From Dudresnaya verticillata (lineage: Eukaryota): DNA of 64,000 nucleotides. The first letter of the stretch is position 1; the number at the start of each line of letters is the position of its first letter. A program made the position numbers and the translations under genes. The notes under the pieces were generated by a model. That model was not told the origin of the DNA, ran no database searches, and saw only the letters and a program-made list of their open reading frames with translations. This document shows positions 19,430-56,980 of the stretch, piece by piece. The DNA lies in the NCBI GenBank assembly GCA_977862235.1, contig OZ374557.1, positions 2,232,001 to 2,296,000 on the forward strand. The letters are read 5' to 3'.

Positions 19430-19430
19430 C

Positions 19431-20966: not shown

Positions 20967-20971
20967 TCGTT

Positions 20972-28130: not shown

Positions 28131-28172
28131 GGGGTTTTGGCAAAATCGGGAATGAACCGTGGACTTCGTGTT

Positions 28173-28546: not shown

Positions 28547-31222
28547 CTATTTTGCCGCACCCTCCTCCAAGTCGGGAATATCTTCACCATACACCCTTGC
28601 GGTGATCATGGTGAGCCTCCTGCCGGTGTCTTCCATGCGTCGACGCAAAGCACGAATGGTACACCGTAGGCACACCAGACGCCCGACCCACAGCACGGCG
28701 GTGTTAATGGCCTCGTTCGCCGACGCTGGAAGGGGCATGCTGGAATCTCTACACCCTTCGCGGAGTCGCTGCAGGGCAGCCCCATCTACGCGCAACTCCG
28801 CTTCGGTCCAACTCGTCATCTCCTTCGGGGCATCCTCTTCTTGTTTCACCACCACGGGGTCGATATTACGGGGTGGTCCTCCAGCTGGACCCGCAGCGGC
28901 CACAAACGTCACGGAGTCACTCGACGCGGGCGACACCGGTTTGGCAGTTTCACCCCGCTTCGGTACAGGGGTCTTCACTGCTACTCTAGACCGTGTGATC
29001 GCGAGTGCCTCCACTTGGTCGATCCCCGCCGGTGTAGCGCCCTCTTCCATTTCGGAGTCTTCGTGTTCCCCGACGGGGCCCAACTTCGCCACGGCTGCAG
29101 CTACTACCGTGGGCTTCTGACCAACTCCCGCTACGGTATTCGCCGCCTTGTCCAACTTGGTGTTCTTGTTAACCCCCGGCGAGGCCACCGGTTTCGAAAC
29201 CCCGATTGGTGTAGATGCTGCGGCCACCCCCGACAAACCCCCCTGCGTCTCGATCTCCGCTCCTACAGGAGGAGACTCTGTTACGGTATTCTTGGGCGAC
29301 GAAGTCGTGCGGTCGCCCCACACCTTTATGGCTTCTCCACCAGGGGATTCTCTTGGCACGAGGACCCTGGGGTCCCCGCGCACCCTCTCAATCTCGTCAA
29401 CCCCCACTGGTGTAATCTCGTCAGCAGGCGGACTGTCGAGGCGTCCCTGTTGATGCTGCACACCGAATGGAGTACCCCACTCGCGTGACGGCGGAGCCCT
29501 TGATGGCCCCTCCGTCATGGGGTAGAAGCGCGAGCGGGAGCGCATCGCGTGCCAGCTCAACATTTGCTCGTCGATCAACCACACCGGTTCGGGGTCTTCG
29601 TCCGACAGGAAATAAGCCATACCGCATCCGGAGTTAAGTGGCGGCACCGATAACACGCGGTCTTCGTCCCAATGGTAACCGACGAATCCTGGGGTTCGCT
29701 CCCAGTTGGTGTTCGCGCGAACCGCGAAGAGACGCTCAACACGCGCCAAGGGGTATTCGGTCCCCTCAACCAACCGGGCCACTCCAACTTGGTGTATGAG
29801 GGCAACCACTGTGCTTGGTAGCTTGAAGATGCGCCCGCACTCGCCACCTTCTGGATCCGTTCTGTTACGCGGGTATGCCCTCCAGTCGGTCATCTTGGTA
29901 TTGGCTCTCACGTCCCGGTAGGTAACTTGTAACCAAGCGAAAAGGACGAACATTGCCCATTCCGCTCGGAGTATTCGCCCCAACACGGTCATCAGTAGAT
30001 GGTCAACCGACTTCTCTCCGGCTGGGTGTGCATCTTGCCAGTCGCGCTGCTGGATAAACCGATTGGAGAGGTACGCTACCACCGTCGGAGTTGGCACCGA
30101 CAGCCAACGTGTGATTTCGTACTCAGCCCACCAATCCGGAGCGGTGCAGTATAATCGACGCTGCGCCCCCGGCGGAACCTGGAAGAATTCGTTCGTGTTC
30201 CAAGTGTGGAGTATCGCCCTTCCGAGGCGGCGTCCATCTCTACCCCGCAATCGGAGCCGATGCTCTTTCGCTGCGTCGTCAGCCCACCGTTGCGGATTCC
30301 CAAGCCAATGAACACCTTGGTCATATGGTTTTTCGTAGCAAAGGAAATCGACACCAACCGGATGATCTCGCAGTCGATGGTCCATTGCCAACAATCGACA
30401 CACCTTATCGGGATAGCCCTCTTCTTCCTGACATCTCAACCACACGATGTCACACCCAAGTGGAGTTCGCACCCTACAGTTTGCGTGAATCCACCTGGCC
30501 CTCCACATCTCTGCACGCCGATTCGGGAACCACTTGTTGTTGATTAACCCACCGGCGTCTGTAACAGCACTGTAGCGACTCCCCTCGAGGTTTTCACCAT
30601 AGTTGGAAACGAACACCGATACGGTAATGGGGAGACGCACCATATCTCGCTCCTCTTCGGTACGCTGACGCCGCCCGGTGCGGTGGTCATACTCCCGGCC
30701 CGGCCAAGTTCCCTCATCGGTGTACCCCGTCTAGTCCACACGCCCGTGGTAACTCCCCAGTGTCCCCGGCGCGTATGGCAGTGAACCCGACGGTCCGCCG
30801 CCGACACCCATGTGGAGTGGGGCTGAGGTTACTCCAGTTCTACCGTGCCCAACCTGGAGACCCTGCGCGTACGCCTCATATCGCCCATGCGGAGTTGTGC
30901 GACGATAACCACCAAGCTCCATCTCGGTGATGCCCTTTGAAGGACCGGGTCGTTGTACCCCCGGCCCCACCTGTCGATCCGGGAGCGGAGTGGGCGTCTG
31001 GCGAGCCTCGCCATCATTGCGTCGGCGCGGAACACGCGGGCTACCCGTGCGTGCTGGCAGCATCGGCATTGTGCTCGCTGCCGCCACAACTCCTGATATG
31101 GTGTCCGCAGATCCGCCGCCTTCTCCCTCTTCTGCCTCCGGCGCAGGAGCCGCCCCCACCGATGGTGTACGCCGTGTCGTTTGAAAGGGGACCCGTGCGC
31201 GGTCAGTGTTGCCGCCCGCCAT
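28547..31222 (-). CDS. Antisense accessory ORF of element C (unknown function; 698-codon open segment plus disrupted 5' part)
   Basis: ORF 28547-30643 has a Trp-rich globular region, a low-complexity linker and a helical C-terminus. Probable ATG at 31222. Conserved in copy C2. Confidence 0.8.
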
Positions 31223-31376
31223 CGCTAGTGGCACACCCGGTTGGACTTGCACGTTGGTCGACTTTCCCGAAGCAGAGTGCAACGATGAGGTTTGCTCCGT
31301 TGTTGGGTAAACCTGAGTGGATTTGTAGAAACGTGCCGAGGCGCACGAGGACGTGGCGCCATTTAGGGAAGGGGTC

Positions 31377-32051
31377 TGTGGTGAAGCGGCCGTTTCGGAG
31401 TGCGGACGACGGTTGAGCCGACTCGCAGCCGGCGCACCGGTGAGCTGGCGCCAAAAGTCGAAGCGGAGTGCAGTGACACAGTAGCACTGTATGCCCTGAT
31501 GGAGTATGCGCGCACCACCAATAGGAGCCAAGTAGTTGATTTATTTGTAATTAGGTAATTATAATCATGCTGTACAGTACGTAGTGTCAGCCGGCCAATG
31601 AGAATGCCGAGCATGTCCGCAACGGTGACCGGGACCAGTAGGGCCGGACCCACCTGGTGGACCAGACCCATTGGGGTCTGGCCCACACGGACCGGACCGC
31701 GGGGCGTATCCCCCAGTATATTAATGGGTGGCCACCGCGAGTCCTACAGTAAACGGGTACGCAACCCCGGGCAAAGTGACTTACCCTAAGCCTTACCCTC
31801 ATACTCCTTTACGGCTTCCCCTCGCCAGCCCCGAGCACGGATTCCTCTTACCTCCGTCTCGGTGTAGCTGTCCTGGCACTGTACCGACCCCCTTGTCTGT
31901 TGCGTCCCTTTACTCCTTACAGGTGTTGCCGCTCGAGGTACTCCCTTCGGTTTACGAACTATGCTCTACCACCCCGGTGCCGTGTGGGATCACTCCTTAT
32001 CGGGATTGCCTGATCAGCTCTCCTTACAGGTGTGCCTTTCACTTCACCACA
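31377..32051 (+). repeat. 3' LTR of C
   Basis: Preceded by PPT and followed by the TSD. Confidence 0.97.
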
Positions 32052-34002
32052 AGTTCTACCAGTATAAGCGACGTACGGCCGAGTGGCAACAAGAGGTGAA
32101 GAACCAGTTTGGCGAGATGCAAGTCAAGATGTCCACCACGGCTCTGATTAGGGACCAACAGCTTCGCCAGGAGATACACTCCGTCATTCTCGACGGTGCA
32201 CTTACGGCCATAGCCGAACGTTATGAGGAGCGTCTGGAAAAGGTTGAGTCAGCCGTTTTTCTTCCGACGGGAAGGTAAAACTCGCTGTTCCGCCTGACCA
32301 GACAAGGTCCGAGTCCGCTCGGATGACACCGGGCAATCAACCAGTCTTGGCACCACAGTTTGGTGAACCGGTAGCAGCAGTGCAGAAGCAACTGGACAAG
32401 TTGCAAGATGAGATTACAGCCTTGTCGCATCCTGACAAGGCTCGGCCGAATATTCCGGTAGAAGGGGTACCACCGCAAGAGGGCAACATTCAGAACAGTG
32501 GTGCAACCCCACGGCCTGCGTTAGTTGGACCTTCGGGCCCAGCTGATGTAGGAGAATCTTTCACGGGATATGCCGGCCATATGGATGAGACAGGTCTTCC
32601 GGTCGCAGCGATGGGGCCGATGGAACAGGGTCTAGAGCCTCTCAAGACCCTCCAGGAGCCCTTCTGGCGGATGGTGGATAACCGGACCCACCGTCTTCTG
32701 GATACTCGGCCAACGATGACTATGGAGGATGCGCGGCGCTTGTCCCGGATGACTCGCCAAATCCGGAACTTGTTCCCGCAGATGAACCCATTTGATGGCC
32801 GACGCCCGATAGAACTTCTTTCTTTCCTCAAGGAGTTCAAGGATGCCTGTGATGGGACAAAAGTTCATGAAGGAGCCGCCTTACGTCTTCTGGCCTTCTT
32901 TACGGCCGGTGATGCGAAGAGGTTCTATTCCGGCCGGATGTCCCGTGGTATACGGTCAGTACACTCCATCTTCCCGATGAGTGGATTTTCACAAATCAGC
33001 TGGCCACAATTAGTCCATGCTTTCATCAAGCGCTACTGCACCGAAGATGTTCTGGCCGCCGCGTTTGACAAAGTGGCCTGAACCAAACAGAAAGATACCG
33101 AGACAGAAGCGGAATTCGCCGACCGGTTAGGGGACGCGGCGCTGTCGTGCGCCGAAATCTTCTCGGAGAACACCCTGATCAACCATTATGTAAGGGGTTT
33201 ACCTTCGACCACTCGTTCGGCCGTAGCTGAGAAGCTTATGCAGATGCGGCCGGAGGAGAAGGACTTCTCGACGGTGCGTCGTATCGCCATCGCCGAGGGG
33301 GAGACACACAGAGCCTACTTGGCTTCTGCACGTCCAAAAATAAGGTCGGCCAGTTCCCGAAGTGCGTTGGTCATCCCTACCCTTGCGGCCGAGCCTGTTT
33401 GGCAGGCGGAGCCTGAGGATATAGCGGCCAACTATGATGATCCTTTTGACACCATACCGGTTATGGCCATTACTCCTGGCCAGAATGGTGCTCAGCAAAC
33501 ACCGACAATGACGCCGACCACGCCGTCACCGGCTGGGTCGGTGTCCGGGGGTAATACCCCGGACCCACTCCGGAAGCCGCCAACGTTGACGGCCGACGAG
33601 CTGACCAAAGTCGCTATTATGCTACGCAGTGACAAAACCAGTGCCCGTTGTTGGGGTTGTCGCGAATGGGGTCATGATTTGTACACTTGTGTGTACTTAC
33701 CAATGGCCATCAGGAACTTGTTTGCCATACGGAACTTCCGCTTCCGAGATGAGTACTCTAGATGGCACCCTGAACAGTTTGCTGGCCGAGGTGGTCGAGG
33801 TTACCGCCCCGATCAAAGGAATGTCTCCTTTGGAGATGGAAGGGGACGCCCTCCCCCTGAGGGAATACTCCGACGGCCGCAACAATCATCTTCGAACCGT
33901 GGGAATCGGCAGACCACGTTAGTCACTACGCAAGAACATCCAATGGATGAGGTGGTGGCCGACGTGGAGTCCGATAATTCTTCGTTAGCATCGGGAAACT
34001 AG
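32052..34002 (+). pseudogene. gag: Element B gag, main part
   Basis: VDNRTHRL, FDGRRPIELLSFL, QKDTETEAEFADRL, knuckle CWGCREWGHDLYTC; internal stop at 33079-33081. Confidence 0.9.
33993..33999 (+). promoter_or_regulatory. Putative -1 ribosomal frameshift heptamer G GGA AAC at the B gag/pol junction
   Basis: X XXY YYZ in the gag frame directly before TAG; the -1 frame is open into the protease ORF (34023-35396). Confidence 0.75.
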
Positions 34003-34022
34003 CCGGGCCGAGATCTTCGGTC

Positions 34023-37000
34023 GTGATCCCGTTGCCCGTACACGTCCCAAAAACGGCTAGTCTCGTTTCCGTTAAGTTGTTTCCTTTCAGTCACCTCCGT
34101 TTTTCTTCCTTGTTAGCCATTGCATGGCGTTTTGCAACGCCAATCCAGGTTTGGTCAACCCATGATTTGGCCTACCACTGCCCATTTTCATCTAACGGTC
34201 TGGTGTGGTCACCGGCTTGGCGTTTCGGCCATACTACATCATCATCATCCACCCCCATACCAAAAGATGGGGGTTCCTTGCCAAAGAGTGGCCGCAAACC
34301 ATTGAACGAAGAAAATACAGAAGATGCCCAGTCGGCCGATGTTTCATCGCAAGGTATGGTCTGCATCCTGGGTGGGGCCAACTATACCCTTTCGGGTTCT
34401 TTTGGTCTCACCATCTCTGCCTTGATACCCGGACCCATGGTCTTAGACACGTGTTCCGGGTGGAACATCATCCGACTGGATGCGTTGCCTCCCAATTGGA
34501 AGGACAACGCACTTGCGTTGACGTCCCCACCTCTTCTAGGGGACGCCAACCAACGGCCGATTCACTTTCGAGGGGCCGTTTACTTGGTCGTGCGCTTAGG
34601 CCGTCATTCATATAGAGTGCCGTTCCTTATCGCCGACCTTCGATTTTCTGTACCCATCTTACTGGGTACAGCCTTTTTGAACACGCACGTGGATAGCATC
34701 CAGTACCGTGGTCAAACCGTGCACTTAGTGCGCGGAGATATCCTTCCGCTTCTCCCTGACAGCACTTCAGTGGCTCTGGGGGCAGAGCCAACCGCTGCGA
34801 AGGGGGCCCCGCCTCCGGGTAATTCCAATTCGGCCAATATGGAACGCAAGCCTCTACGACACTACGCGGCCACTGTACGCTTGACGAAAGGTCTGACCAT
34901 ACGGGCAGGGCCACAGGCTACCGTGTCTGTACGCAGTGACGGCCGAGGATTGTGCCTGTTGGAGCCCAAACATTCTTTGAGCCTCCGGCACCATACGCGA
35001 ATGGCCAATGGAGTTGCCGACGTTCGGCCGCAGAAACCGTTCCAGGTAATGCTAGCCAACTGGGGACGAAAGGATGTCTTATTACCAAAGGGCACGGTAG
35101 TCGGCTATGCCGTCCGTCACCCTATGGCAATCCTGACGCCACACCGACAGAGCGTGGAAAATATGGCCAATGTACTTGAACTCACCCCTCTAGTGGAGCA
35201 GAATATTAGACAAGTAGAAGTAGAAGAGGTCGGCCAAGAAAAGGACATGTCTTTGGAACCAGAGACACCCAGAAACGACGCAGAAGAATGGCGGGACAAG
35301 ATCAAGCTCGATCACATCCCGGACAAGAAGCAACGCAAGAAGATAATGGCCATTCTGGAGAAACACAGTGCAATGTGGGACGGTTCCTTGGGATAGATCA
35401 TGGCCACCGAACACCGAATATACTTGGAGGAGTGGACACGGCCAATAAGAGCCATGCCCTACCGACAGGAAACAGCGTTACGAGCGATCGCTGAGGCCGA
35501 CATTAAGAAGCAGTTGGAGGCTGGAGTGATAGAGCCATCACATGGCGAATGGGCATCGCCAATTGTCATGGTGCCCAAAAAGGATGGCACTCTCCGCTTT
35601 TTTGTCGACTACCGTCGAGTCAATGCGAAGACAGTTGGCGACGCATATCCGCTCCCGCGCATGGACGATTGTATAGATTGCCTTGGAGATGCGGCCGTGT
35701 TTTCTACCTTGGACTGTAACTCCGGTTACTGGCAGATACCAGTGGCCGAAGAAGACAAGGATAAGACGGCCTTCACTTCCCACTTGGGGACATTTCGGTA
35801 TAATCGAATGCCGTTTGGATTGAAGAACGCACCGGCCACATTCCAGCGCGCGCTTGATATAGTTTTGTCCGGCGTCCGATGGCAAATATGTCTCATCTAC
35901 CTGGAAGACGTCATCGTGTTTTCTAAGAATGTGGAGGATCATCTTGGCCATCTAGGCGAGGTGCTTACCCTTTTGAAGGCGGCCGGTATTACCTTGAAGC
36001 TGAAGAAGTGTTCGTTCTTCCAGGCCAAAGTAGATTACCTAGGTCACGTGGTGACCCCCGGGAAGCTGAGTATGGCCATGCAAGGCACCAAGGCAATTGA
36101 AGAGGCCGAGTTCCCAGGTACCCTTACGGAACTCCGGTCCTTCTTGGGAGCTTGCAATGTCTACCGAAGGTTTGTGCCCAAATACTCTACGATCGCACGG
36201 CCACTCACCCGTATGCTGTGCAAGGATGCAGAGCCAAACTTTGAGCAGCCGACAGAGGAACAGAGTCATAGTTTCGAGAAGCTGAAGGCAGCCCTAATCT
36301 CACCGCCGATCCTAGCCCTGCCTCGACATGGACGGCCGTATGTCATTGAAACGGATGCCAGCGCTTATCAAATCGGGTGTGTCCTACTCCAAGAACAAGT
36401 GGACGGGACGTACCACCCAGTGGCATACGGGTCTCGTTCCCTGACTTCGGCCGAGAAGAACTATTCGGCCACGGAGCGCGAGTGTTTATCTGTGGTGTGG
36501 GCCATTTCATCGTTACGGCCATATGTTGAAGGTACGAAGTTCACGGTCCGCACGGACCATGACGCCCTTCGGTGGTTGATGTCGCTCACAGATTCGTCCG
36601 GCCGTCTCACGAGATGGAGGTTGTGTCTAGCCGAGTTTGACCTTGTGATCGAGTATAAGCCGGGGCGCAAGAATGAAGTACCCGATGCCTTGTCCCGACT
36701 GGTGGCCCCGCTGGAGAGCGGAGACATACGGCCAATAGATGATACTGTACCTGTATTGGACGGTACCCCCTCTATTCTCACGACCACGCGGGCAAGGAGA
36801 AATCGAGAAGCAGCCCACGCGTCCGATAGGAGGGAACGAGAAAACCAAGATGACGATGTTGACGAGTGGGAAGAAGAGCATTTGATGGCCGATTATACTG
36901 ACTACGGCCGGGCAGAGGCCTTCAGTCGTGCACAAGCAGAAGGGAAGGCATCGGAGACACTCCCCGCACCATTGACACAGGCTGAAATGATAGAAGGGCA

Positions 37001-38460
37001 GAAAAGCGATGACTTCTGTCAGACCATTATAGCTACACGTGCCGGTTTGGGTACGTCCAAGAAACCCCTCTTCTTCGAGAGTGCACAGGGATTCCTCTCC
37101 CGGCGGTGCCCTACGGATGGCCGACATCAAATAGTGCTATCTACTTCGGTACACGGCCGTATTCTTCGGTTGTGTTATCGTGCAGTTCTTGCAGGTCACC
37201 CTGGCCAGAACCGTATGTATCAGATACTCCGCCGGACGTATTATTGGCCACATATGGCCGCTGATTGCCTCGCCACTATTCGGAACTGTGGCCAGTGCGC
37301 CAAGAATCGGATCCGCAGACTACGTCATATGTCAAGGTTGAAGCTGTTTCCGGCCAATTAACCCTTGGAGAGCGTGGTCATGGATCTGCTTGGGTCGTTA
37401 CCTCGGACGAAGAAAGGCCATGAGCATATACTAGTCATCACCTGCCGTTTTTATAAGCTGATACAGGTGGTGCCTTTGGCCAAAATCACGGCGTACAATG
37501 TGGCCATAGCCTTTTGCATTCATTGGATCTTCAATTATGGAGCGCCAAAAACAGTACTGACCGACAATGGGGGACCGTTTGCGGCCAAGTTCTTCCAAGT
37601 GGTTTGTCACCAGTTACAAGTGGCCAATATATTCACGACTACATACCATCCACAGACCAATGGTCAATTGGAGAGGTATAATCGGACGCTGTCGGCCATG
37701 CTGCGAAGTTATGTGAACGAACACCAAACCGATTGGGACCAATATGCGGCCGCACTAACGTACCCGTACAACTGCCATGTACATCTTTTTACAGGAACTA
37801 CACCGTTTGACTTGGTCCTGAGTCGGCCACCAGGACCGTTTTCGTTAGAAGCCACGCTAAATCGGCCAAAACCAACGGGAACAGTCAAGGAAGCTTTCCT
37901 CCGAAGGTTGTCAGAGGCTGTAGATAAGGCATCGTCCAGTCTAACCCGCGCGCAGACACGCTATAAGAAGGACTTTGACCGCTCAGTGCGAACAGGAAAT
38001 AAGTCATTGGCCGCAGGAGAGTTCGTCTTCTTGGACAATCCGGAAAAAGCCGAAGAAACTGGAGCACCACGCACAAGGGCCGTATAAGATTATAAGTAAC
38101 GATGGCCGAACCTTCGTGATAGACCGGGATGGCCAGTTGGAACGCGTGAGCTCTGACCGAGTTGCCGCGGCACCAAGGCCACAAGGGCAACCACTGGCTC
38201 CGGAAACTATAAGCAGTGCTGCCCTTAGCAACCTCCCAGAGGGCGTAGCAGCGATGGCCGAAGAGTATGTCATTGATAAACTCATGGACATGCGCCAAGA
38301 TTCTACCGGCCGTCGTTGGTTCCAAGTCAAGTGGTATGGTTATCACGGCCGAACGTGGGAGCCAGAAACTCTCTTGCCGGCCACATTGGTCTCCCGTTTC
38401 TTCGCGCGCATGGCGCGTCGAGCCACACCAACCCAGAGCAGTAGCGGTGGGCAGGTTTGA
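34023..38460 (+). pseudogene. pol: Element B pol (PR-RT-RH-INT-chromodomain)
   Basis: VLDTCSG; YLED (mutated YLDD); ETDAS; GHPG..C..C; MDLLG/TDNG/GQLER; GPY; EYVIDKL...VKWYGY..TWEP. Stops at 35396 and 37361, frameshift near 38045. Confidence 0.95.
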
Positions 38461-39258
38461 ATCCGGCCGTTATAATTCCAAGCGAGTGAGGCCAAGAGTT
38501 CGGCCGAAGACAAGTGTGGGTGAAGGAGTTGTGTGTCGGCCAAGTGGGACAGTGCTGGGTGGTAATAACATTTTGGTGAACACATCTCACACCAAAATAC
38601 GACGGCGGCCATTTAGGGCTGGACTACCCAGGTGCGTCTCGGCCAGATCACGAATGAATGGGCCGAAATCGCCGAGAGGCATGAGCTGGGCCCGAGTTGA
38701 GTAATAGTGATTGGATGGTAAAAACTCACCATCCGGTCCTGGGGATGAGTAACGTTAATTGCAGCCCAAAATCGTGCAGACATCCGACAAGACATGTCGG
38801 CGGTTCCGACCTTCGCGACTTGGCCACTCTCACGTATGCTCTCTCGGAGAAAGACGGCCGAACTATTGCATCGTGAGGAAGAATATCGGCGGAAAACGAA
38901 GACGGAGCAAGTTGGCCGACCTACTGAAGCGCGACCGGAGCGCGAACGCAACCTGGGCAACGGCCGAAGGATGAGGCTGACAGCCGTAGAGCGAGGGGGG
39001 AGCTTTCGAGAACCCCCAAGAAAAAGACAACCATTAACATTTTTAACTCAAGTTGGCCGAACAATAAGGGGAAGAGCTGTTCTGAAAACAGGGAACCACT
39101 TACCCGGTGTCGGCCGAGTACTTCTATTATTGGCCATCAACTTTTGAACATAACAACAACTATACAAAGACGGCCATTAACACACTAACATAACATTGGC
39201 CGAAGAGAAAGGAAGCCAAGTCTTCATAAGAACTTGGCCATCCACTTGAAGATGGCGG

Positions 39259-42200
39259 TTAACGCCGGACGTAGGGGTCAGCGTATTCGCCTGGCCGAGA
39301 AGAGTAGGGCATCGGAGACCTTGGTCCCGCTGCCCCACCAGCATCCGACGATGGGTCGGCCGTGCGTGGTAAGAACGGGCTGGCCGCGGGAAGAGACATG
39401 GAAGGCGTGCCGGCCATACTAGAACGCGGAGCCGCCACCGGGGTGCCAGGCGCTGAAGGCCCGGCGCGAGCAGGTTCAGGTTGGTAATCCGACGGCCGAG
39501 GAGCAACGCGACTTTGGCCGGAGGGAATATCAAAGACTTGAGCTGGCGTCGGAGGAGCTTGAGTCGGTGTAGCAGCACCCGGCGTCCCAGCGAAGTTGGG
39601 CATCATGGGAACATTGGCCGAAAGTTGCTGATAGGGATGATGGTGAGACGGAAACTGGCCAAACGATGGAGCGGCCAGTGTCCTTATAGAAGCCAGCTGG
39701 TGGAAGCTGCGGTTGCGCTCCAAGTCCAGTAGCGTCTGCTGCTGATGGGCCGAGTCGCACCAACGGTCGCGCTGGCGCTTCCACTCCTCGCCCTGCTCCT
39801 TATGCATGGCCAGCCTCTCCTGGACATCCCGGTTAACGCCGTTGAGTCGGTTCAGCTCTCGTTTCAGACCGGCCAACTCTTCTTCACGCTTATCAATAAC
39901 GGCCTTACCCCCATCGAGATAACGTCGATAGCGTGCAATATCGACCAAGTCCTTCTCCCGCATCTCCCCGAATCGGCCGATGCATTGGTCCAGCTGGCGT
40001 AGAACAGTCACCAACGGGGCTTGGTTCAAATGACCCCTGACACTAAGCTCGGCCACAAGTCGAGGATGCGGCTGGAGAGTTTGCGGCCGAATGATAGAAG
40101 CTTCGTTGGCCACTTCCACGCCGAAGCTGCTACCGTGGCGGAAGGTAATCTGCTTACCCCAATCGAAACCACAGTACTGCTCGTCTTGCGACCCACGACG
40201 AGAAAACAAGTGGGGACGATTACGGACAGCATCGGCCAACTTGTCATAGAGGTCCACCACGTCCGGCCAATACACGTCGTTGTACAAGTGCTGGTGTGCG
40301 GGGTTCACCGGAAGCGAAGGGAGATCCTTAATGGCCGAAACTCTCTTCTCAATACTCTGAAGAGACATCCACCACATCCGCTTGGAAGCTTGTGCTTCGT
40401 AGCGGAAAAACATGGCGGCCATAACATGAATCTCCCTAGTCGTGATCTGCCGGAAGTAACCATACCAATCCACCTCAGTCGGCCATGTCTTGTACTGATG
40501 AACGAAGTAATAGGCCGTGGGACTCAACAAAGGGCACTCACCAGCAGTCGGCCATTCAGGCCAAAGGAAGGCCGGAATTGATGGGAAGGTAGTCACGGGC
40601 GGCCAGAAACACTGTTGCCCACGACCACCGGCCAAGTAGATGTAGCAACCAGTCGTCTGATGAGCAACCCAGTCGGCCGGCGCAATCACGCGGCGCAAGT
40701 CCGTGCTAGCCCACTTCGCACTACGCACCACGGCCTGGTCTGCACGATCCAACCTCCAAGACTGAGGGAAGGCATGCCACCAAGTAAACATATATGGCAT
40801 CACAGAAGATCGGCCGGTAAGCGTAAGCCAAGCTTGATGGACCAACAAGACGTCGCCCATGTTAAGTAGGAAGACGCGGTCGTATCCAATCTCCCATGGC
40901 ATCCAATATAAGTGGCCGCCAGCGCGCGAAGAACGGAACTGGCGCCAATTGTCGGCCAAGTTATCGGGACTCTCACGAAGACGAACCATATCCAGTTTCG
41001 GCGAAGTAGCCACCAGCTCCGTGTAGTTGATGTCAACTCTCGGACACTTCGGCCATATGGACATATCGGGCAAACTCGCGTCTAGTCGCAACTCTGGGCC
41101 ATCGCGATCTTCAGTCCCCGGTGGGATGTGAGCCGGCCGATGTGACGCCGTCTGAGTGTGTCTAGCAGGGTCTAAATCCTGCGGCAGGGGAGAATAATTG
41201 GCCGGTGTAGAAATCGGAACGGAATGGCCACGAGTTGGACGAGCAGATGATGCGGACGGCCGACGAACTTCCCGACTAGTGGCCGTGGCGTCCACTACGT
41301 CCTCACGCGGAATAAGTGCAGACTCTCTGAGGTCTGGCGTGGGAGCTGGAACGGCCGGCGAAGATGTTTGAGGAGCCGGAGCGGGAGCTGGAGCAACTTG
41401 CCCTTCATCATTCGGCCGAGGGAGATCTTCTAAGTCAGGTAGCTGACTAACGAAGCGCCGCTGGTCGCCATCACTCATCAACCTGGCCGGTGGCACAGGC
41501 GTGTCCGTATCAACGTCGATCACTTCGCTCCTTGAAGGAGGAGGTACCTTCTTAACGGCCGCTGTCTTCTCTTCTTCGGCCACTCGCAGCTTCTTCAATG
41601 GTGGGCTACGTGACGAAGAGGGCTTTAAGCCTGGGCCGGATCGACGAGTAGGCATGAAGGGCGAGGGAGATGACCGCAAGCGAGGCGCCAAACGATGTGC
41701 CGTGGGATTATCGGTGGCCTTCTCAGCAGTCGGCCGTCGTGGAACAGCAACGCCTGCTAAAGCACGCGCCTTCTCTCTCTGGGCCACTACATCCATGGCT
41801 TCACGCAATACGGCCAAGTCTTCTGGGTTGGCCGTCTCAGCACGATCCGCCTTCTTCCCATCGGCCGACTTATCGAGAGCCGTCTCAGCCGTTTTAGCGT
41901 TGCCATCAGTTCCAACACTGGCACACGGGGTAGATTGTTTGGCCGAAGTTGAAAGCGGGGCCGGCGGCGCAATAGCGGTAACGGTTGAAGGGCGAACTGC
42001 CGTCTTACTGGCCTGCTTATTGGTAGCCACGACTATAGGAGCAGATGACGCTCCTGCTACAGTGTCGGCCGCGGCTGTGCGCGTCGAGGGCGAAGACAGT
42101 GACGGCGCAAGTGGGAGACTTTTGATGCCGGCCGAAGAAGACGCCACCGCCACCTTCGGCGACGGTGGAAGAGCAGATATGGCCAACTTCATCGGCCTCG

Positions 42201-42665: not shown

Positions 42666-42878
42666 CGCTACGCGATGGCCAAGGCGTGGCGTCGGAGAAG
42701 GTGGGGGAGGTTAAGAGTAAGGAGCGCAGTCGGCCGTAGGGTGCAAGCGTGCGCAGTTAAGGTGCGCGTGCTGAGGGTGATGGCCGGAGATGAGGGTGCC
42801 AGACGACGCGGCTCCCGTCTTGATATAGCCGTGATCCGACCTCGCGGCCGGGGGTCCGCGCTTACGAAGGGGGCTTTG

Positions 42879-46056: not shown

Positions 46057-46058
46057 AC

Positions 46059-46076
46059 TGGTCTCCCGACCTAGAA
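46059..46076 (+). promoter_or_regulatory. Primer-binding site of D
   Basis: TGGTCTCCCGACCTAGAA. Confidence 0.9.
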
Positions 46077-46183
46077 GTGTGCTGAGTTTCAACGAGTTAC
46101 TCCGTCGTGCGACGTCCGACTTTCCGTCTTCAGACGTCCGTCGCTAATCGTCCACGACGTTCAAGCAACTCTACGACTGCATT

Positions 46184-48755
46184 ATGGCCTCACGACCGCC
46201 GCCGTCGCGAGGCCCAAGTTCAAGAAGACCGTCATCGACACCGGGGAGTGTCCCCGCGTCGGAACGCTCGCTACAGCGGATGACAACGAGGTCTGGGCGC
46301 CTCGTGAGCTCTGAGATCGCATCGGCCTTTCCGACCGGTCCTGGCCACGATCACTCCCATGTATCGCTCAACAGGGTAGAAGTACCTCCCCCGCCGATAC
46401 CCGTCGTCATCCGTACCACCGTTCCCAACGAATCGGCCCTCCAAACCTATCACTCGCACGTGGATTCCGCTGCCATGGTCCAAGCCGAACAGCGGCCCGT
46501 CGAGGACGGAGCTCAAGCCGACATCGTCGAGGAACAACCGGAAGTTCCGGCCAACCAACCAACCTTACCCGTCGAAGACGACCAAGAACGCCCTGCGGGG
46601 CGCAACGTCGAAGACGAAACACCAATCCCGAGGGGCTGCTGCCCCTCACCCCACGGCAGTGCCGTATGTTCACCGGCCAGGCCGTTAGCGCAACAGCGCA
46701 GCACGGGGGGTCCGCCTCATGCGCCGACCCCCGCGCGCACACCGCCAGTGGCATCCCCAGCATCCGCCCGTGTTGGTAATCTCGCAATACCTTGGGAGCG
46801 GATTTGGGAAGTATGCGTCGCTGAAGACGGTAACTTACTCGCTCGATTCGCGTAGATGTTAGACGACAATGTCGGAGGTATCTTCAGAGGTCTGCAGACG
46901 TTGGAAGAAGATCGGGATGGTGCCCTTCAAGGACTCCGTTCCGACCTCAACCGTCTGATGACGAACCCCAACCACGGAGTAAATGCCCCGCAGCCAGCGG
47001 CATTGACGGTCCACTTTGATGGTCCGCTCTCAGTCAGAAATGAGTTCACATGAACGCTTTAAGCGATTAGCAACCCGCTTGGAGCGACTGGAAACCGCCA
47101 AATGGCGACAAGGGCCGCAGTCTGACGACGATAGTTCCGCAGAAGATCGTCACCGACGCAAGGAGCGGAAGAGGCGAAACAAGAATCGCCGCAAGCCACG
47201 TCATGGACGGAAGAAGAACCGTCACAGACGAGGGGACTCCTCCTCATCCTCCTCGGATACGTCTAGTGACGATGGGTCGACCGACGCGTCGTCCGATGTT
47301 GATGACCGCATCGCTCACCGCAGTGCCATGTGGCCCCGCGGAAAGCGTTAAAAGAGGTTGAAGGAGCTGAGCCCCTCCCACCCCCTCTTCGATCAGTTAC
47401 TATCGTATCGAACATACCGTCTTCAAGATGTGGGACAGAAACGATCTGGGCGCGAAACCGGGAAGGTCAAAGACCATATCAAGCGAATCGAGTTAACAAT
47501 GAAGGACGCCGCCTTCAACGGCAGCGACCCCGTCATGGTTCTCGAATTTTTAACGCGGTTCGCGGATGAAGCCGACATGCTAGAGATGAGCGAAGCACAA
47601 GCGTTCGTCGCACTGCCGTACTTCTTACGAGGTATGGCAGCCACGCAATTCCGCTCCGTCAAATCGACGTCCTCACGCCACCGCGGGGGCCTATCGTCGT
47701 ACCCGGAGGCGGTACACTACCTTCTCCGCACGTACGCCACGCCTTCGGCGATTTGAGACGCTGTCCTCGCCCTGCGGTCGACTAGTCAGAATCAGGGCCA
47801 AGACGAAACGACTTACGGCATGAAACTCGCCGGCGCATGTACTAGTTGCGGTAACGTTTATCCCGAATGGGAAAAGATGACACTGTACATCGATGGGTTA
47901 GACCCGATGATCAGGTCTTTAGTGGCCCGCTTCCGCGAAGAAGCGCCGAGGGCGGAGTTATCTTTTGAACGTTTAGTCCACTTCGCACAAGATGAAGCCG
48001 ACGCGCAACGCGCAAGACACGGCAGGGCCGGTTCGACGCCAGTACGACGGGATATAATGGCCCCGGCCCAAGCCGCTCGCGTATTGCGCCCCGACATTGG
48101 CGACAAACGAACGGTTCTACGTCAACAGACAAGGGGCGCGAAGCCTGCCGCACGCGCTATGATAGCGGAGTCTTCCGTTGAGTTCCGTGATGTCACCCGT
48201 CATGCGGACGATACGGAAACACACGCAGATGGACATATCTACTTGGCCTACGAACAAGCTTCAGTGCCAACATCAGCGTTACCAACGGACAGCTACGTCG
48301 AAGACGAGGACACCGGGGCAATGGACCCTACACTCGCCTTTGGGCGTTCCGTTGTGCCCGCGCCACGCGTTCCGTACTCGGCGTATGCCCACAATGTCCA
48401 TCGGGAAAGGGCAGAATGGCAAGACAGGGGTCCGTTCCGTCAAGATGCTCGCAGACAGTTGATCTGTCACCAGTGTTATGCCCGTGGGCACATCGCACCG
48501 GACTGCTTCCTCTGCATGAGCGAGTATATGAAAGCAATCGCCAACTACGAAGGCTTAACAGACGCTGAGAAGGCGGGTGTCCCCGCTGATGCGTACACTC
48601 GGTACACGGAACACGCCTTGCGCGAAGCATCACATCGTTCGGCGCGTCCACCATCGCCACGGGGCGGGCCTATGCTGCATGCAGCAGGACGTCATCCGAC
48701 GGTGATCAATAGCTATACAGCGCCGCTACAACCGCCGCAGGAGAAAAACCATTGA
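46184..48755 (+). pseudogene. gag: Element D gag, disrupted
   Basis: LSYRTYRL, FNGSDPVMVLEFL, YLLRTYAT, knuckle CHQCYARGHIAPDC. Confidence 0.9.
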
Positions 48756-48997
48756 GGGTACCAACTCCTGACACTGGGTTGTCGCACCACGCAGAGAGGC
48801 TTCCGCCTCGGGTGCTGACACGGAAGGAGGGCCCGAACGTAGCTAACAAACACGCCCATAGGCGGGTAGACTCGTCACAGACGTCCTTGCAGCGCCCGTG
48901 GCGTAGGTACCAGCCCCCACAGGCCCGGGGACAGTTGTTGGTAATGGCCAAAAGGAACTACAAGGTATAAGCCGACCTGGGCGTAACTTTAGGTACC

Positions 48998-51900
48998 TTG
49001 GGACGGAAACGTACTGTCCTCGGCACGGGGGCTGGTCCGAATTTCATTCGCATTGACGACATTCCGCTAGATTCTCGACCACGGATCGTATCCAAGAGTC
49101 TTCCCGTCATACCAGACGTTAACAACAAGGCGATTCAAACCCGGGGCACTATCGACTTAGTCGTACGTCTCGGACGGAGGGTTGTCAAGTTAGAGTTGAT
49201 CGTCTGTGAACGGCTCGCTGCGCCGGTTATACTCGGTTGCGACTTTTGCGACCGCTTTGTCGAAGCGATTTATCCGCGAAGTCGCGAGATTGAGTTGGAC
49301 GACGGGACCCGCGTCCCTATAACGCGCCACCCGCCGCGCCGGCACCCGTCGTACCCCCGTTGCCAACGGAACAAAAGTACGGCACGGCCGGAGGGCGAAT
49401 GTCGCCCAAGATACGCGTTGCGGAACGAACAATCATCCCGCCACAGGCGCAAAAGTGGATCTCGGTAACGACCGAGCGAGCAGATGTCATTACCATCCAG
49501 CCGTTTGGAACGTTATATGATCAGCAAGCTTTGGCCGTTACTAACGGGGTCGCTCAAGTAGAGCCGCTGAGAGCGTTCCGGATTCTCGTCGCAAACGTTT
49601 CTCCGCGTCCGCAAGCGCTCGTCAAAGGACAAGTTGTCGCTACTGCGTTTCCACATCCCACAGCAGTGTTCCCCAGTCACATAAGTCTAGCCGATGTCCT
49701 AGGTATCACCCAGGAGCAAGCAGCGGAGGAAGAGTCGAATCAAGATTTCCGTTTTCAAACGAATGATGGAGTAACGGCAAAGCCGGATACAATGGCTAAG
49801 TCGATCGAAGCAACTGTAGCTAAACCCCCGTCAGTGGACGAGTTGGACCTGATTCATCTCTCAGCCGAACGGCAAGAACGGATGAAGGAGATGCTGCGCA
49901 GGTACGCGTCAATTTGGGACGGTTCATTAGGAGAAATCGCAACCACGGAGCACTATATTGACTTGCTCCCCGGGTCCAGGCCGATTTCATCCCCGCCCTA
50001 CCGCGCTGGCCCAAAGCAAAGGCAACTCGCTCAAGTGGAGGTTTATCGCATGTTGCGTAACGGGGTTATCTAACCAGCACAATCGCCATGGGTGTCACCG
50101 GTCGTCTTTACTCCCAAGAAGGACGGTACGCTCCGCTTCTGCGTTGACTACCGTCGCTTGAACGCTGTGACGGTACGAGATAGGTACCCCCTCCCGCGAA
50201 TCGACGAATGTATTGACAGTCTAGGGGAAGCTAACGTCTCCACTACCCTAGACTGCAATAGTGGTTACTAGCAGGTGCCCATCAACCCGCGGGATCGCGA
50301 AAAGACTGCGTTCGCGTGCCATGCCGGGTTGTTCCGCTATAAGCGTATGCACTTCGGGCTTACTAACGCACCGGCCACGTTCCAACGCACCCTCGATATC
50401 TTGCTTGCTGGTTACAAGTGGCGCTCATGCCTCGTCTACCTTGACGATGTGATAATTTTCTCTAACGATATCGACAGTCACTTCCGTCACGTGGACGAGA
50501 TCCTTTCGACCTTGTATCGGGCCGGAGTGACACTGAAGGTAACCAAGTGCGACTTCTTCACCCCGACCGTCAACTATCTAGGCCATGTGATACGTCTGGG
50601 ACGATTGGAAGTAGACCGCATGGTCACCTCCGCGTTACTCGAAGCCAAGCATCCGTGGGACCAGAAGGAATTATGGAGCTTTCTCGGATTGTGCAACGTC
50701 TAGAGACGGTTTGTATCGCGATACGCGCATGTCGCCGCTCCCCTCACCAAAATTTGAGGAAAGAGCAAGACTTCCGGTTACAACCGTTCACCGAGGGGCA
50801 AGCCCAGGCATTTAGCACGTTTGTCGAAGCGGTTACTCACCCGCCAATCGTGTCGTTTCCACAGCAGGGACTACCGTACTCCGTCGATTGTGACGCAAGT
50901 GAATACCAAGTCGGCTGCGCACTCTTCCAAACGCAGTCTGACGGTGAACGGGAGCCGCTTGGATTCTGGTCAGGCTCGTTAACCGCTCCGGAGCGCAACT
51001 ATTCGGTATCCGAAAAGGAATGCCTCGCAAAAGTTTGGTCGATCACAACGTTGAGACCGTACCTTCAGATGGAGTCCTTCGTAGTCCATACGGACCATTC
51101 GGCGCTGAGGTGGCTGATGGAAATCAGCGACCCTTCGGGACGGTTAATGAGATGGCGCCTTCGTCTCTCTGAATTCGACTTCGTCGTGAAGTATAAAAAG
51201 GGATACCTGAATACTCAGGCAGATGCCCTCTCACGTCTACAGACGAACGGCGAAACCGTCGAACCAATTGACGATGATATCCCGTGTTACCACGGAAGTT
51301 GCGTCAAGGACGAGGATCACTCGCCAGAGGGCGGCTACGCTCACGCAGAAAGGGATATGTCAAAACGCCAAGGGCGAGGTCGATCTCTCTGAACGAGAGT
51401 TCGAGGAGTTTGACTAGATGTTGGTTACCAACGCGCCACTGGCGAATGAAGTACTCCTCCGTCAATTGATGCATGAAGAGTTGGTGCATGCCCAGGGCAA
51501 TGACTAGTACTGTTCTGAGATCCGGAAACGTCTAGACGACGGAGACGCCCTACGGTTTGCAACGGATGAACAGGGATTATTGGTTCGGACCGTCGAGGCC
51601 CGACCTCAAGTCGTTGCACCATCCGCGTTACGCGTTCGACTGCCCCACCTCCGGCATCACGCTAAATTAGCAGTACATCCCGGGGGGCGGAAGCTGTACC
51701 ATACGCTTCGACGCGAATATTATTGGCCGTCTATGTTGGTGGATTGTTACGTGACCGTCCTCAATTGCGTTACTTGCGCGAAGAACCGGGTACTGAGGCG
51801 AAAGAACGTGAAGGAGATGAAACTGCTCCCAGCAACCGAGCCCTCCAGTTTGTGTCCATCGATATACTCGAGGAGCCCATAAGTACTAAGCGGGGGAATA

Positions 51901-53498
51901 AGTTCCTACTCGTCATTGTGGACCGCTCCTCGAAGCTGTTCCGGACGGTTCCCTTACGTAATATTATGGCATTGGAAATCGCTAAGGCGTTTCTTAGACA
52001 CTGGGTGTTTGTGTATGGCCCACCCAAGAAGTTGCTGTCCGACAATGGGCCCAATTTGTATCAAAGTTGTTCCAGGACGTCTGCCGCATCCTAGGGTGGA
52101 GAATCTCTTCACCACTACGTATCATCCGCAGTGTAACGGCCAGGTGGAACGATTCAATCGAACCATCCTCGCCTCACTGCGTCAATACGTAGCAGCCCAC
52201 CCAAGGGACCGGGATTTGTTCACCGACGCTTTGACGTTCGCGAACAATACGCAACTTCATTCGTCTGCACACCTCGCTCCGTTCGAACTGGTACTATCCA
52301 AGCCCCCGCGGCCATTGTCGCTGGAAGCGGAGCCGTCGCTTGAAAGCGTGCCCACCGCCGGCCAGTGCTACACCAAGTGGCGCACTTGGCTTACAACATT
52401 GATGTGAACCGCTAAAGCGTCGCTCTAGAAAGCGCAGGCGCGTTACAAACGGAACTTAGATACTCGCCTGAGGAAATCGAAGGAGAAAATCGCTGTGGGT
52501 GACTTCGCATTCGTGCGGAAGGAATAATTCGCCCGCGGCGGGAGCACCGATCGAGCAGAACGCAAGCACAAGCTCGCGCCTGTGGCGGATGGACCGTATC
52601 GGGTAGCTCAAGGCAACGACGAGACAGTCACCGTCGACAAGGGACGCGTCGAATGCGAGCGTTTATCCCGGGACCGCGTGGTATGGGCGCCAGCCCCACC
52701 AGGGCACGCCGCCCCCGCAATCGTGCAACCACTGGGACTACCTGACGTCCCGGGGCCCACTGCCCCGAGGCCAACCGACGAAGGAGCAGGAACCCCAGAC
52801 ACGCCACAGACGGACCCGGCAGGAGGCACAGGGACATCGCGAAGCGCGGAAGACTCGCAGGAGCAAATGAATGCAACTCCGCGAAGTCGCGGGTTGGCAG
52901 AGCGCTCGCCCTTCGCCCCCAACCCCGACGATGGGGCCTCGCAATCTGTCTCCGACGAGGAGAAGGGTCCGGGCATCCGTACGCGAATGGGACGCGAATG
53001 GGACACGCAACCTCGGCTTCGCCTGCTACCAATGTAGGTCCCGCTTCGAGCACATCGACTGATGATGAGGAAGGCCGTGCTAACGCGAAGGACACCGCTG
53101 CAAGCGAGGAACCAGTACGCAAAAGCGACGAACCACAATCCGCTACGGAAGCGCTCGGGGCACCGACCCAGCGCCTTAGACGATCGACTCGTCGAGTACG
53201 GTTTGCAGAACCGGTGCAGACGCCCATCACGAGACGAAGTGAACCGCCCAAGGCGCTAGAACGGCAGGAGTCCCCGTCGACCGCTGCAAGCGCGAAGGAG
53301 TACGTCATCGAACGGGTTGAGTCGCACGCACACGCAGAAGACGGTGAGATCCTCTACTGCGTCAAGTGGTTTGGATACCCCGCCTCATCGAATACCTGGG
53401 AGCCAATCTCCAGTCTACCGCGATCATACGTCGTGCGATATCATCATCAGAAGCACACGCGCCTGCCGCCAAACATCGACGACGCGCAGCGCGGGTAA
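48998..53498 (+). pseudogene. pol: Element D pol, heavily disrupted
   Basis: VLGTGAG (protease D lost), YLDD, DCDAS, HPGG..C..C, SIDIL/SDNG/GQVER, GPY, EYVIERVESH...VKWFGY..NTWEP. Confidence 0.93.
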
Positions 53499-54690
53499 CC
53501 CTAGTCAGGGTGAAGGCTGGAAGCGAACGGGGCAGTCTAATTCGGCGACAGTACACGCCACACCCCCATCCATGTTGACGCGGACGTGCACTTGTTACGG
53601 ACGAAGGATGCTGTAATCTACCGCGTCAGGGACGGTTGGGTTGGCGACACGCGAATAGGCAACCCTCTTCGGAGGGGGTCCGTAAGTACAGGACGGCTGA
53701 CAGTAGTCAGAAGCCGTGGAGGGCGCACGCACCACACGAAATCGGGTAACAAACGAAATGGAAAATTTTAATGTGAAAAGAATAACGCGAAGGCGCCGCC
53801 AGCCAGGCGGCGCCCAACAAAAGAAGATCCGACAAGTTTGTGTGCCCCGGCACTACGAGCGCCCACGAGGAAAACGCAAGCCCGGACGCAACAGACCGTC
53901 TCCCACACCCACGGCCAAGTCCGAAACTCACCACCCTTACGGGCGGCACTCGCAAGCGCTCCAAGGCCAACGCCCGTGGACGTCAACGACGTGTTTCAAC
54001 TCTGAAAAGGGGTCGCCCGCAAACACGAGAGAAGAACCAGTCGTCGAAGACGGAGTTAGGCTATGTTTCGTGCGCGACGCGCTAGTCGCAAAAATAATTC
54101 CGCCGCTGGGCGTGGCAACCGCGCCCAGGAGTCGCAGGAGACGCGCCCAGCACGCGGGGCAACGCAAACCCAAGCGCCCCCGACTCCAACCCAACAATTC
54201 CTACGTCAAAGACGAAAAGCCAACCGAGAAACGGATTCCTAACGACATACTCGCTTAACAAGCGGAATCACGATGTGAACAAAACGACTAAGTCGACTGA
54301 AGAACATGGGCTCCCCCAAAAAGGGCCTACGCTACTGCAGCGACAACAAGAAGGAGGGCGCCGCCAACGCAACACCACCCCAAGCAGTTATGCAAGCGCT
54401 ACTACAGCGAACCGAAACAACAACGATGCCACAAACGCAACCCGTCGGCTACACACTTCTCGCTATCGCAGCGCTCTACACCAAGTGGGACTATAAGTAA
54501 TTACGTTTAACAACGGTCAAGTTTATTAGGGCTTCACAAGCGGGGGTAACCCCCGTGCCCGTATAACTTCTCACTACGACCTACGTCGCGAGACGTATGA
54601 ATCCCTCGCTCATCACCCCGCTTCGGGGCAGGCAAAGCGACATCACACGCGCTCTCGGGTTTGTCAACCGTTCTTAACGATCCGACAACG

Positions 54691-56980
54691 CTACGGCTTT
54701 TTCGTCGCAGACGGCTCAGATGGGGCATCATCCCCGACGCCATTGGCGGATTCTCTTAACGCCTCTTCGTAGAGATTGTCTTCCGTCACCAACGATGCGC
54801 TCGCAGTGGGTGCAGGGACAGACCGCAAGGGGCCCGCCACAACCACCGCTGTCGAAGTCGCGACATCCGCCGCTGGTGAGGAGCTTGGCTCACTCCCCGC
54901 CTTAGGCGACGAATCTTTGTCAACCTCCACGGCCGCAGAATTAGAATCATTATCCGCCGTAGGCGCTACACAAGGAAGCTCGCTTGCCTTTCGAGGCGGA
55001 GCATCCTCAACCGCCTTGGGCGAAGTCGACGGCCCCGGCACCTCCGGTGACGGGACCCCATTAACCGCCAAAGGCGTTGAACGATCAATATCCGTCACGG
55101 ACGAAGAGGCTACTGTAGCCTGCGGAGCCGCCGTAGGCACTGTCATCGTACTCGTCTTTGTTAATACCGTCAGCAGACGCAATGGCGGACGAACCCGCAC
55201 ACCCCGCCTTAGGCGACACCGGCTCTTTCGCCACTTCGTCATTAGTCGCCGCAACTTCGTCATTAGACGGCACGGTCGCAACGACGGTCGACGCTGGCAC
55301 TACGGCCACGCCGGGCTGCAAAGCAGCCAGGAGCGAGTGCCCAAGGGGCGTCGTCGATGTCCCGCCCACCCCGTCAGTGACGAAACCGGTTGCTTGCAAG
55401 AATGCGAGCACCGTGCGGCGCTGCTCCCCAGTCCATTCGGGCACTGCAGGAGGGCTATACGCACCGTCAGCGACGTTAGAAATGCCGCCTTGAGGCGTAA
55501 CTGCAGACGCAGAGTTCGCCACTGGCGCAGCCATGATGGCATCACCATCACCGTCATTGACGGGCGCCGAGGGATCCAACGGCGCAACCGACGGCAAGCC
55601 AACAAGCACAACAACCGCCGGTCCTACGACTAAAGTCGTCGTAGGGGCTATTGCCCCGCAGTAGGCCCAACCGCCATAGGCGTAATGACGTCCGTCTCAG
55701 ACGGGTTAATCGGTCCGCTGTTAGCGTGGAACGCATCCTCCTCCGCCATCAAGGCGCTCAAGTGCGGCGGGAAATCACCCGCGAAGTCGCAATTCTTGCG
55801 CAACCCGCGTGGGTTGTTCGCTGGCGTGAAGCGCTTCGTACGACAATGACTCTCAGCGATGTTCTCCGTCGTAAGACGTTTGGTCCACGGGTTGTACCAC
55901 ACCCAATCGCCACCGGCGGAATGGTTTCTACTCATCGCGTAACGCGGACGGTTTGCCTTACGGCGTCTGTTCGTCGGCGGCACAGCAGTCTGATCGTCCC
56001 AGTTGACGTTATCCGCCCCATGGCGTAGATCCCAGAACTCCTGGCAATTCTTGGCACCACCCAGCGCTTCGGCCAGGTCCAGCCCGCCAAGGAGGCTGAT
56101 CACGTGTGGTGGCACGTAATAGAGACGGAGGGTGTCATACACCTACCCTACATCCATGCGTAAGTGACGTTCACAACCCACTCGGTGAAGAATACGATCC
56201 AACATCGGGAGTACGGATCCGTCCGCAACTCGGAACCAATATACGTGACGCAAGGAGACAATTCAGCCGCAAAACCCTCGCAGACTTCGAAGTCCCGCCA
56301 CAACGGCGGGACACGGATGAAGCAATGCGGCAACTTTCCCGCTCAATGCGATCAACTTGCGTATCTTGGTACGGCACGAAAGCGCTTTTGCGGCGGCGCG
56401 TTTCGCACTCCCAACGGACGCAGCGCTCCCAAAAGAAGGTGCCCGTCCTATGGAGGTATCGGAAATCCGCTTTCAAGCGTACACCAAGGCGGTTAGCCTC
56501 CTGAAGCACCCGCGGCTCAGCCGAAACAGCCGCATGGCTTAGTAATAACGTTCCAAGACGGTCCCCATACCCAACCTCACCATTGGTGCGGTACTGCCCT
56601 GCGTCACATTCAAAGACGGTGGGTGTCAATACCGACCCCGGATAACGGGTATACCGCCGATATACGTCGACGACGAAACGCGCATGCGCATCTGCACGCC
56701 TCTGCCCGGCTGCAATACGTAGCCAGCCTCTCGGAATGGCGCACCGATGGCGCCACTCGTTCGTCCACACGACGGCCAGGGGTAACTCCCCTGGCAAAAA
56801 TCCGCTCACAGCGTAATGGGTGATGAGGTCCTCGTGCCGCAGGGCCTTCTGGTCGAACCAGGGGGGCCGCGAGAATAATAGCGCATCGTTGCGGGGAGTG
56901 CTCCCGACAAAGTCGAATTGTGACGGATACACCGACGCCGCCGAAGGCGCAGCCATTTGCAGTCCATTGAACTGTGCCAT
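54691..56980 (-). pseudogene. Antisense accessory ORF of element D, fragmented
   Basis: Fragments 56171-56980, 56148-56333, 55648-56142, 55085-55609 and 54691-55281. The Trp-rich segment aligns by eye with the antisense protein of C. Confidence 0.75.

Follow-up and report, generated by a model that had tools for sequence, protein, structure and literature searches.

What is encoded by the long minus-strand open reading frames (ORFs) that lie between pol and the 3' long terminal repeat (LTR) of several Ty3/gypsy retrotransposons in Dudresnaya verticillata, and do they belong to one gene family? The question is raised by a stretch of 64,000 nucleotides (contig OZ374557.1 of assembly GCA_977862235.1, positions 2,232,001 to 2,296,000 of the forward strand; hereafter the window), the content of which is a nest of such elements, with element C inserted within element B. 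Long frames of this kind occur in B, C, D and C2, a second C-type copy (Table 1), and fall into the aORF-3R class, which comprises long ORFs that run opposite to gag-pol in the interval from pol to the 3' LTR. An initial annotation, made from the sequence alone, had read these frames as carriers of a conserved domain with a lineage-wide accessory role; the observation is confirmed here, and its interpretation is partly supported. The antisense gene is real, under selection, present across the lineage and without a membrane segment. The arrangement is one already known from other elements, and the domain family is new, extending across a red-algal gypsy lineage.

The position, strand and sizes first given for the frames were correct, with the reservation that in D and C2, and in part in B and C, they are decayed ORFs. 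The stretches that remain open are far longer than chance would give, with 1039 codons in B and 727 in C against shuffle maxima of 359 and 318 (200 shuffles each). The start codon of C lies 145-155 bp from the 3' LTR at 31377 and for D (56980) the distance to the LTR at 57428 is some 450 bp; the C frame stays open for 19 codons beyond 28547, where a basic PPAKRPR motif is found. The B ORF consists of a disordered N-terminal half, a divergent domain, a long helix and a Pro-rich end, and the domains of C and C2 are 83% identical in amino acids. As had been claimed, the LTRs of B, C and D are unrelated (no mutual blastn match at E<1e-10) and all three families carry chromodomains. Pfam models detected reverse transcriptase (RT), RNase H and integrase in A, B and C, and chromodomains in A, B and D as well as in C, where the frame is shifted. 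The layout, with gag, the order protease-RT-RNase H-integrase, a C-terminal chromodomain and flanking LTRs, is that of chromodomain-bearing Ty3/gypsy elements, a class assigned here by domain content, the RT tree having been built without reference chromovirus RTs; chromodomains are reported to have had several separate origins within gypsy elements (PMC12477816).

The domain had originally been proposed from a by-eye alignment of B, C and D. Taken pairwise, that alignment was not significant, the real score being reached in 155 (B-C), 437 (B-D) and 61 (C-D) of 1000 shuffles, and only under lax gap costs did the C-D comparison stand out (6/1000). Because alignment within the window lacked significance, outside homologues were needed. 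Relatives were therefore gathered by aligning the RT-RNase H regions of A, B and C against public contigs, independently of the antisense ORF, which yielded 91 loci, with 11 from genome bins and, from metagenomes, the best 80 of 559. Two of the loci, L003 and L006, were used to seed a profile, which was iterated on non-window ORFs only, with C and D held out; it recovered C (E 3e-11) and the middle piece of D (E 2e-12) among about 12,000 ORFs, and a rebalanced core profile recovered both in a set of the same size with E-values of 9e-15 and 1e-13. The outside homologues align exactly the blocks picked out by eye, and the conserved core reads P-x-WW-x3-E, P-x-V-x2-Y, EW, LW-x-LP and a last W. 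A profile of the N-terminal half matched C (E 4e-7) and, weakly, D (score 22, decoy maximum 17). The claim that a W..W.H-like upstream block recurs in all three families stood less well, the block in B not being the positional equivalent of that in C and D.

Against a large protein set, the core profile gave 149 matches among 7995 scored candidates, and none of the 120 profile matches listed carried a Pfam domain. One matched cluster includes the Pyropia yezoensis "hypothetical protein I4F81_005891" (KAK1863333.1), which has a practical consequence, in that such ORFs enter annotations as host proteins of no assigned function. This match and the PAG2-like methylase ORF of the window (see below) both point to a red-algal host. 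Searches that began from C gave nothing, with 0 matches among 5918 candidates in a protein search and 0 of 47 pattern matches confirmed in metagenome contigs, and no domain match was confirmed in scans of viral contigs. A 506-aa member of another cluster (P0055) recurs, always with the same length, on 30 short Logan contigs and is a candidate for an expressed or host-domesticated copy.

The RT-selected loci allowed the presence of the gene to be scored. Informative loci, with integrase and a further 2 kb or more past pol, numbered 31 of 91; of these, 25 carried the domain antisense after the integrase, in agreement with the lineage-wide retention first proposed. Many of the same loci had served to train the profiles behind this tally, and the independent tests of homology are thus those on C, D and the protein P0001 described below. 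Six informative loci were negative: L007 ends before the expected domain site, L025 and L055 diverge from their relatives before the domain, L071 and L074 have truncated pol, and L009 is unexplained. L009 (5900-7951), which falls in the RT clade of B and A, is the sole informative locus in which pol is intact and no antisense domain could be detected, and may represent a true loss or a copy too divergent to detect. With shorter contigs included, 34 loci were positive after the integrase, and 33 of these had a chromodomain. There were four further matches elsewhere, in L033, where no integrase was detected, upstream of gag in L069 and L072, and in an inverted piece in L082; we read the placements in L069, L072 and L082 as assembly permutations or neighbouring copies. 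In a quick RT tree, domain-positive loci occur on most of the main branches, and comparison of the domain and RT trees shows agreement of shallow clades and no resolution of deep nodes. The metagenome loci are mostly high in GC and possibly derive from few hosts, which limits what they show about host breadth. Loci L001-L009 are complete eukaryotic retrotransposons within bacterial metagenome-assembled genomes (records titled Algimonas, Planctomycetota and Moorena), a placement most likely due to binning contamination from a seaweed host.

The membership of B, the most divergent of the three families, had to be established by a longer route. Among 1.84 billion protein representatives, B has two homologues, P0001 (E 1.4e-8) and P0002 (E 7e-5), to which its domain is 27-28% identical. 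A core profile that had never seen P0001 recovered it at E 2e-8 in the first round and at 5e-6 after more members were added. A profile of B, P0001 and P0002 aligned with the core over 72 columns (probability 74%, E 2.9e-5), with a score of 37, where 120 shuffled decoys reached no more than 19.8; in a second, collinear block in the N-terminal half the B profile scored 22 against the family, with at most 15 in 30 decoys. When used as a search query, the same three-member profile matched only P0001 among 7995 candidates. These profile-profile links indicate that B very probably belongs to the domain family as a distant member. It is improbable, though conceivable, that the B ORF was captured independently, so that two different antisense genes occupy one slot; the family profiles miss B alone, its domain is only 11-19% identical to those of C and D, and its architecture differs, with a central domain and a long coiled coil. 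The match to P0001 by a profile blind to it, and two collinear blocks scoring above decoys, argue against such a capture.

The domain is under purifying selection. Pairwise Nei-Gojobori estimates gave a ratio of nonsynonymous to synonymous substitution rates (dN/dS) of 0.16 between the domains of C and C2 (191 codons; 95% confidence interval, CI, 0.10-0.26), rising to 0.21 in the C-terminal helix and 0.43 in the low-complexity tail; B and D were each represented by a single copy. Six other unsaturated close pairs gave 0.19, 0.23, 0.24, 0.34, 0.43 and 0.48, all below the value near 1 that would have counted against the initial proposal; RT in two of those pairs gave 0.40 and 0.54. In two distant pairs the ratio was 0.49 and 0.60; silent sites were saturated in three antisense comparisons. 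Divergence is much quicker in the domain, whose median identity is about 20%, than in RT (47-88%). Between C and C2 (28228-30109 and 62161-63998), the synonymous rate (dS) is 0.52-0.71 in the antisense gene and 0.11 at the integrase end, a contrast which suggests that the 3' module has been exchanged between subfamilies by recombination.

The domain spans about 250-300 residues and is predicted to be helical, within whole proteins of 600-1300 aa that have long tails predicted to be disordered and, in several families, a C-terminal helix or coiled coil; a simple coiled-coil score flagged 2 of 15 proteins, missed the helix predicted in B and was not relied on. For one relative, L085, AlphaFold2 gave a compact, mostly helical model of 306 residues (pLDDT, the predicted local confidence score, 87.2; pTM, the predicted global one, 0.87) from an input of 77 sequences, mostly of one subfamily; this is the only confident fold obtained, and it is not of a window protein. 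Foldseek comparison of this model gave best E-values of 1.3 against PDB and 1.4 against the viral structures of BFVD, and the best Z among 48,161 chains compared by VIA-align was 3.2, none of these being above noise. A search of PDB sequences with the domain profile reached E 0.35 at best. The expectation that no described domain would match was thus borne out, and the domain is a new family by sequence, without a match in Pfam, PDB or BFVD; the predicted structure is possibly also a new fold, judged from searches of PDB and BFVD only. The best-conserved columns among 29 aligned rows are Pro, Trp, Leu, Gly and one Arg, with no invariant acidic, His or Cys column; an enzyme is unlikely because no polar residue is invariant. 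The label "Trp-rich" given to the domain holds only modestly, since Trp makes up about 5% of the B and C domains and less than 1% of some relatives.

Antisense genes occupying this same slot are known from the Tat/Retand elements of plants (maize Grande gene23, rice RIRE2, Silene Retand), as had been pointed out, and these are likewise long, family-wide and of unknown function, some with a domain-plus-coiled-coil layout like that of some red-algal members (PMC7264820, PMC11963269, PMC4408406). The Grande antisense protein is described as nuclear and expressed from its own promoter (PMC7264820), and DNA binding has been predicted for the Retand TRP28 domain (PMC11963269). The plant proteins carry TRP28 (PF04195) or a plant mobile domain (PMD, PF10536), whereas neither gave a Pfam match at E<=1 in the 19 alignment members or in another 14 proteins or segments that bear the domain, and neither is among the PDB and BFVD matches listed for the L085 model, a search limited to those two databases. 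Tat/Retand elements are moreover seed-plant elements without a chromodomain; here the integrase bears one and the hosts are red algae. The comparison with plants alone was incomplete, for the fungal gypsy element Boty/BcGypsy1 of Botrytis and Sclerotinia also has an antisense gene, brtn (PMC7264820). Set against brtn by description only, the red-algal protein is 600-1300 aa long without a conserved Cys pattern; a Cys cluster of the kind expected of fungal brtn or Zn2Cys6 antisense genes is missing, the core having no conserved Cys column, and no zinc-cluster Pfam model matched. Boty, like the red-algal elements, carries a chromodomain. This is apparently a third, independent origin of an antisense gene in this slot, after those in seed plants and fungi, and three apparent origins suggest that the 3'-LTR-adjacent slot is a recurrent place for regulators.

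What the protein does can be approached by analogy. We give a little less than even chances to its being a nuclear, trans-acting regulator or anti-silencing factor for its own element family. The antisense transcript would start in or just inside the 3' LTR, because the C and D start codons sit 150-450 bp inside it, and the gene would therefore be expressible apart from the genomic RNA. The protein would then enter the nucleus, as suggested by the Grande precedent and by motifs resembling nuclear localization signals (NLS), present in 14 of the 25 sequences or segments (23 matches in all, with about 8 expected from shuffles, a lenient control), bind the DNA of the element, chromatin or a silencing factor of the host, and, acting in trans, regulate its own family or release it from silencing. 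Fast divergence of the domain is what one would expect if the protein were in conflict with the host or kept pace with family-specific LTRs. A model for such a family-specific, trans-acting, fast-evolving accessory protein is VANC of the VANDAL DNA transposons (PMC5735166, PMC10398659), compared here by description; VANC belongs to another class of element, and tandem target arrays are not general in the red-algal loci (10/34).

Several observations weigh against this reading. The proposed function is drawn by analogy from proteins that are unrelated; the charge of the domain core is for the most part close to neutral, unlike a typical basic DNA-binding surface, and 11 of the 25 sequences or segments, including the whole families L035, L085, P0186 and L082, have no NLS-like motif. 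Between pol and the domain, only 10 of the 34 loci have tandem repeats, and Tandem Repeats Finder (TRF) detected none there in the four window copies. B alone is matched by no family hidden Markov model (HMM) nor by hhalign, and the AlphaFold2 model of B (3 sequences) has a pLDDT of 38.6 and is confident only in its long C-terminal helix. For one pair, L030a/L032, dN/dS is 0.64 with a CI reaching 1.05, so that neutrality is not excluded, and domain and RT distances among 17 families show no significant correlation (Mantel test, 819/5000 permutations).

The protein might instead be an accessory of the particle or pre-integration complex that escorts the cDNA to the nucleus or chooses insertion sites with the chromodomain integrase, which we regard as unlikely. 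Several families have NLS-like motifs and long helices, which would fit, as would the near-constant pairing with a chromodomain integrase (33/34), and such a role has been raised for antisense ORFs elsewhere (PMC7264820). Antisense expression would, however, decouple the protein from Gag-Pol synthesis and packaging. It also counts against this role that plant chromodomain elements are not known to need such a gene for integration. The probability is similarly low that the factor works on RNA, through Rev-like export or packaging, suppression of RNA silencing or limitation of copy number, possibly together with the antisense RNA itself: many members have long Arg/Gly/Pro-rich disordered tails, and double-stranded RNA is expected from antisense transcription (PMC7264820), but the searches of PDB, BFVD and VIA-align chains found no known RNA-binding fold. 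Argonaute-hook motifs (GW/WG) were not enriched over shuffles in 25 sequences, and that idea was rejected.

A factor resembling env or a movement protein, by which the element would pass from cell to cell, would fit the slot, where env genes also sit, and some members have a coiled coil. We consider it very improbable, as did the initial annotation, given the antisense orientation, the lack of a transmembrane segment (maximum 19-residue hydropathy <=1.6 in 15 of 16 proteins) and the absence of any match to viral protein models. The notion of chance open frames in GC-rich DNA, or of neutral passengers, draws on the insignificant pairwise alignments within the window and on the fact that all four antisense copies there are broken, and has next to no probability left: it is refuted by the dN/dS of 0.16, by retention across the RT tree and by open lengths far above shuffles, and the confident fold of L085 and the breakage of pol in the same window copies speak against it as well. 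Returning to the regulator reading, its fullest form would be a three-gene red-algal chromodomain gypsy lineage whose third gene has a new fold, acts as a family-specific anti-silencing or transcription factor, was present before Bangiales-type elements parted from those of other seaweeds and forms a module exchangeable between subfamilies. As a whole we hold this to be doubtful; if true, the third gene would give LTR retrotransposons their first example of a VANC-like counter-defence.

In most red algae, genome size is driven by LTR retrotransposons, and red-algal Plavaka DNA transposons also carry accessory, probably chromatin-related genes, PAG1-3, of which PAG2 and PAG3 have recognisable enzyme domains (bioRxiv 2025.02.11.637652). 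A 2012 survey of expressed sequence tags reported no retrotransposon chromodomains in three red algae (PMC3350952). The portions of the literature on red-algal elements available to us contain no description of the antisense gene or its domain, though Repbase or Dfam entries, or the one Gypsy family curated in a preprint on Bostrychia, could still hold an annotation. How red algae silence LTR retrotransposons, and how the elements resist, is largely unstudied, and a third gene with a foldable domain of no known relative offers a concrete protein for study.

Table 1. Elements of the window and features of their antisense genes (window coordinates).
Feature	Position	Strand	Details
Element A	10758..18701	-	RT clade shared with other window elements; ends within own chromodomain
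Element B	18703..43651	+	5' LTR remnant 18703-19430; 3' LTR ends 43651, left boundary uncertain, at or before 42944
B gag	32248-34002	+	
B pol	33978 to ~38460	+	
B chromodomain	38266-38403	+	
B antisense ORF	39259..42665	-	3.4 kb, ~1130 codons from first plausible ATG 42665; one frame break near 42300-42380; 1039 codons open
B domain copy	40312..41073	-	Core block 40363-40590
B long amphipathic helix	39742..40014	-	Predicted coiled coil; sole confident part of B model
Element C	20292..32051	+	LTRs 20292-20966 and 31377-32051 (95% identical); 5-bp target duplication; gag-pol
C chromodomain	near 27906-28060	+	Pfam match, frameshifted
C antisense ORF	28547..31222	-	2.7 kb; ATG 31222; one in-frame stop 30731-30733; 727 codons open
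C domain copy	29693..30511	-	N-terminal half plus core; two insertions relative to relatives
Element D	45142..57623	+	5' LTR from 45142; decayed gag-pol; chromodomain 53301-53423
D 3' LTR	57428-57623	+	Interrupted by other sequence
D antisense ORF	56980 to ~54691	-	2.3 kb, at least 5 pieces; core piece 56151-56333 matches family profile
Element C2	59285..64000	+	Second C-type copy; DNA identity to C: pol 92%, antisense region 77%
C2 antisense ORF	62421..64000	-	3' part only, frame-broken, cut by window end

Because element A ends inside its chromodomain, it is uninformative on the presence or absence of the antisense gene; the junction at 18701 indicates that it was apparently inserted into the 5' LTR of B. 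Between B and D, at 43766-45141, lies a C-like LTR remnant (74-87% identical to the C LTRs) into which D was apparently inserted, and the 3' LTR of D is cut by a further element with an integrase-like ORF, recognised by eye (57471-58640, plus strand; no Pfam match at E<=0.05). Despite their unrelated LTRs, B and C have the same primer-binding-site-like sequence after their 5' LTRs (19431-19447 and 20972-20988), which we take not to be the usual initiator-Met site. Short tandem repeats occur as 90-bp units at 18330-18599, in the 5' region of A, and as units of about 86 bp at 28141-28302, directly after the C chromodomain. Outside the nest of elements in Table 1, a Terpene synthase C-terminal metal-binding domain (PF19086, E 1e-12) is encoded at 5185-5901 (plus strand), surrounded by transposon sequence. 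A split N6/N4 DNA-methylase-like ORF (155-2598, minus strand, and 7821-9485, plus strand; weak Pfam matches) lies near a DUF7869 ORF (E 1e-43) and resembles PAG2, the methylase accessory gene of red-algal DNA transposons (bioRxiv 2025.02.11.637652).

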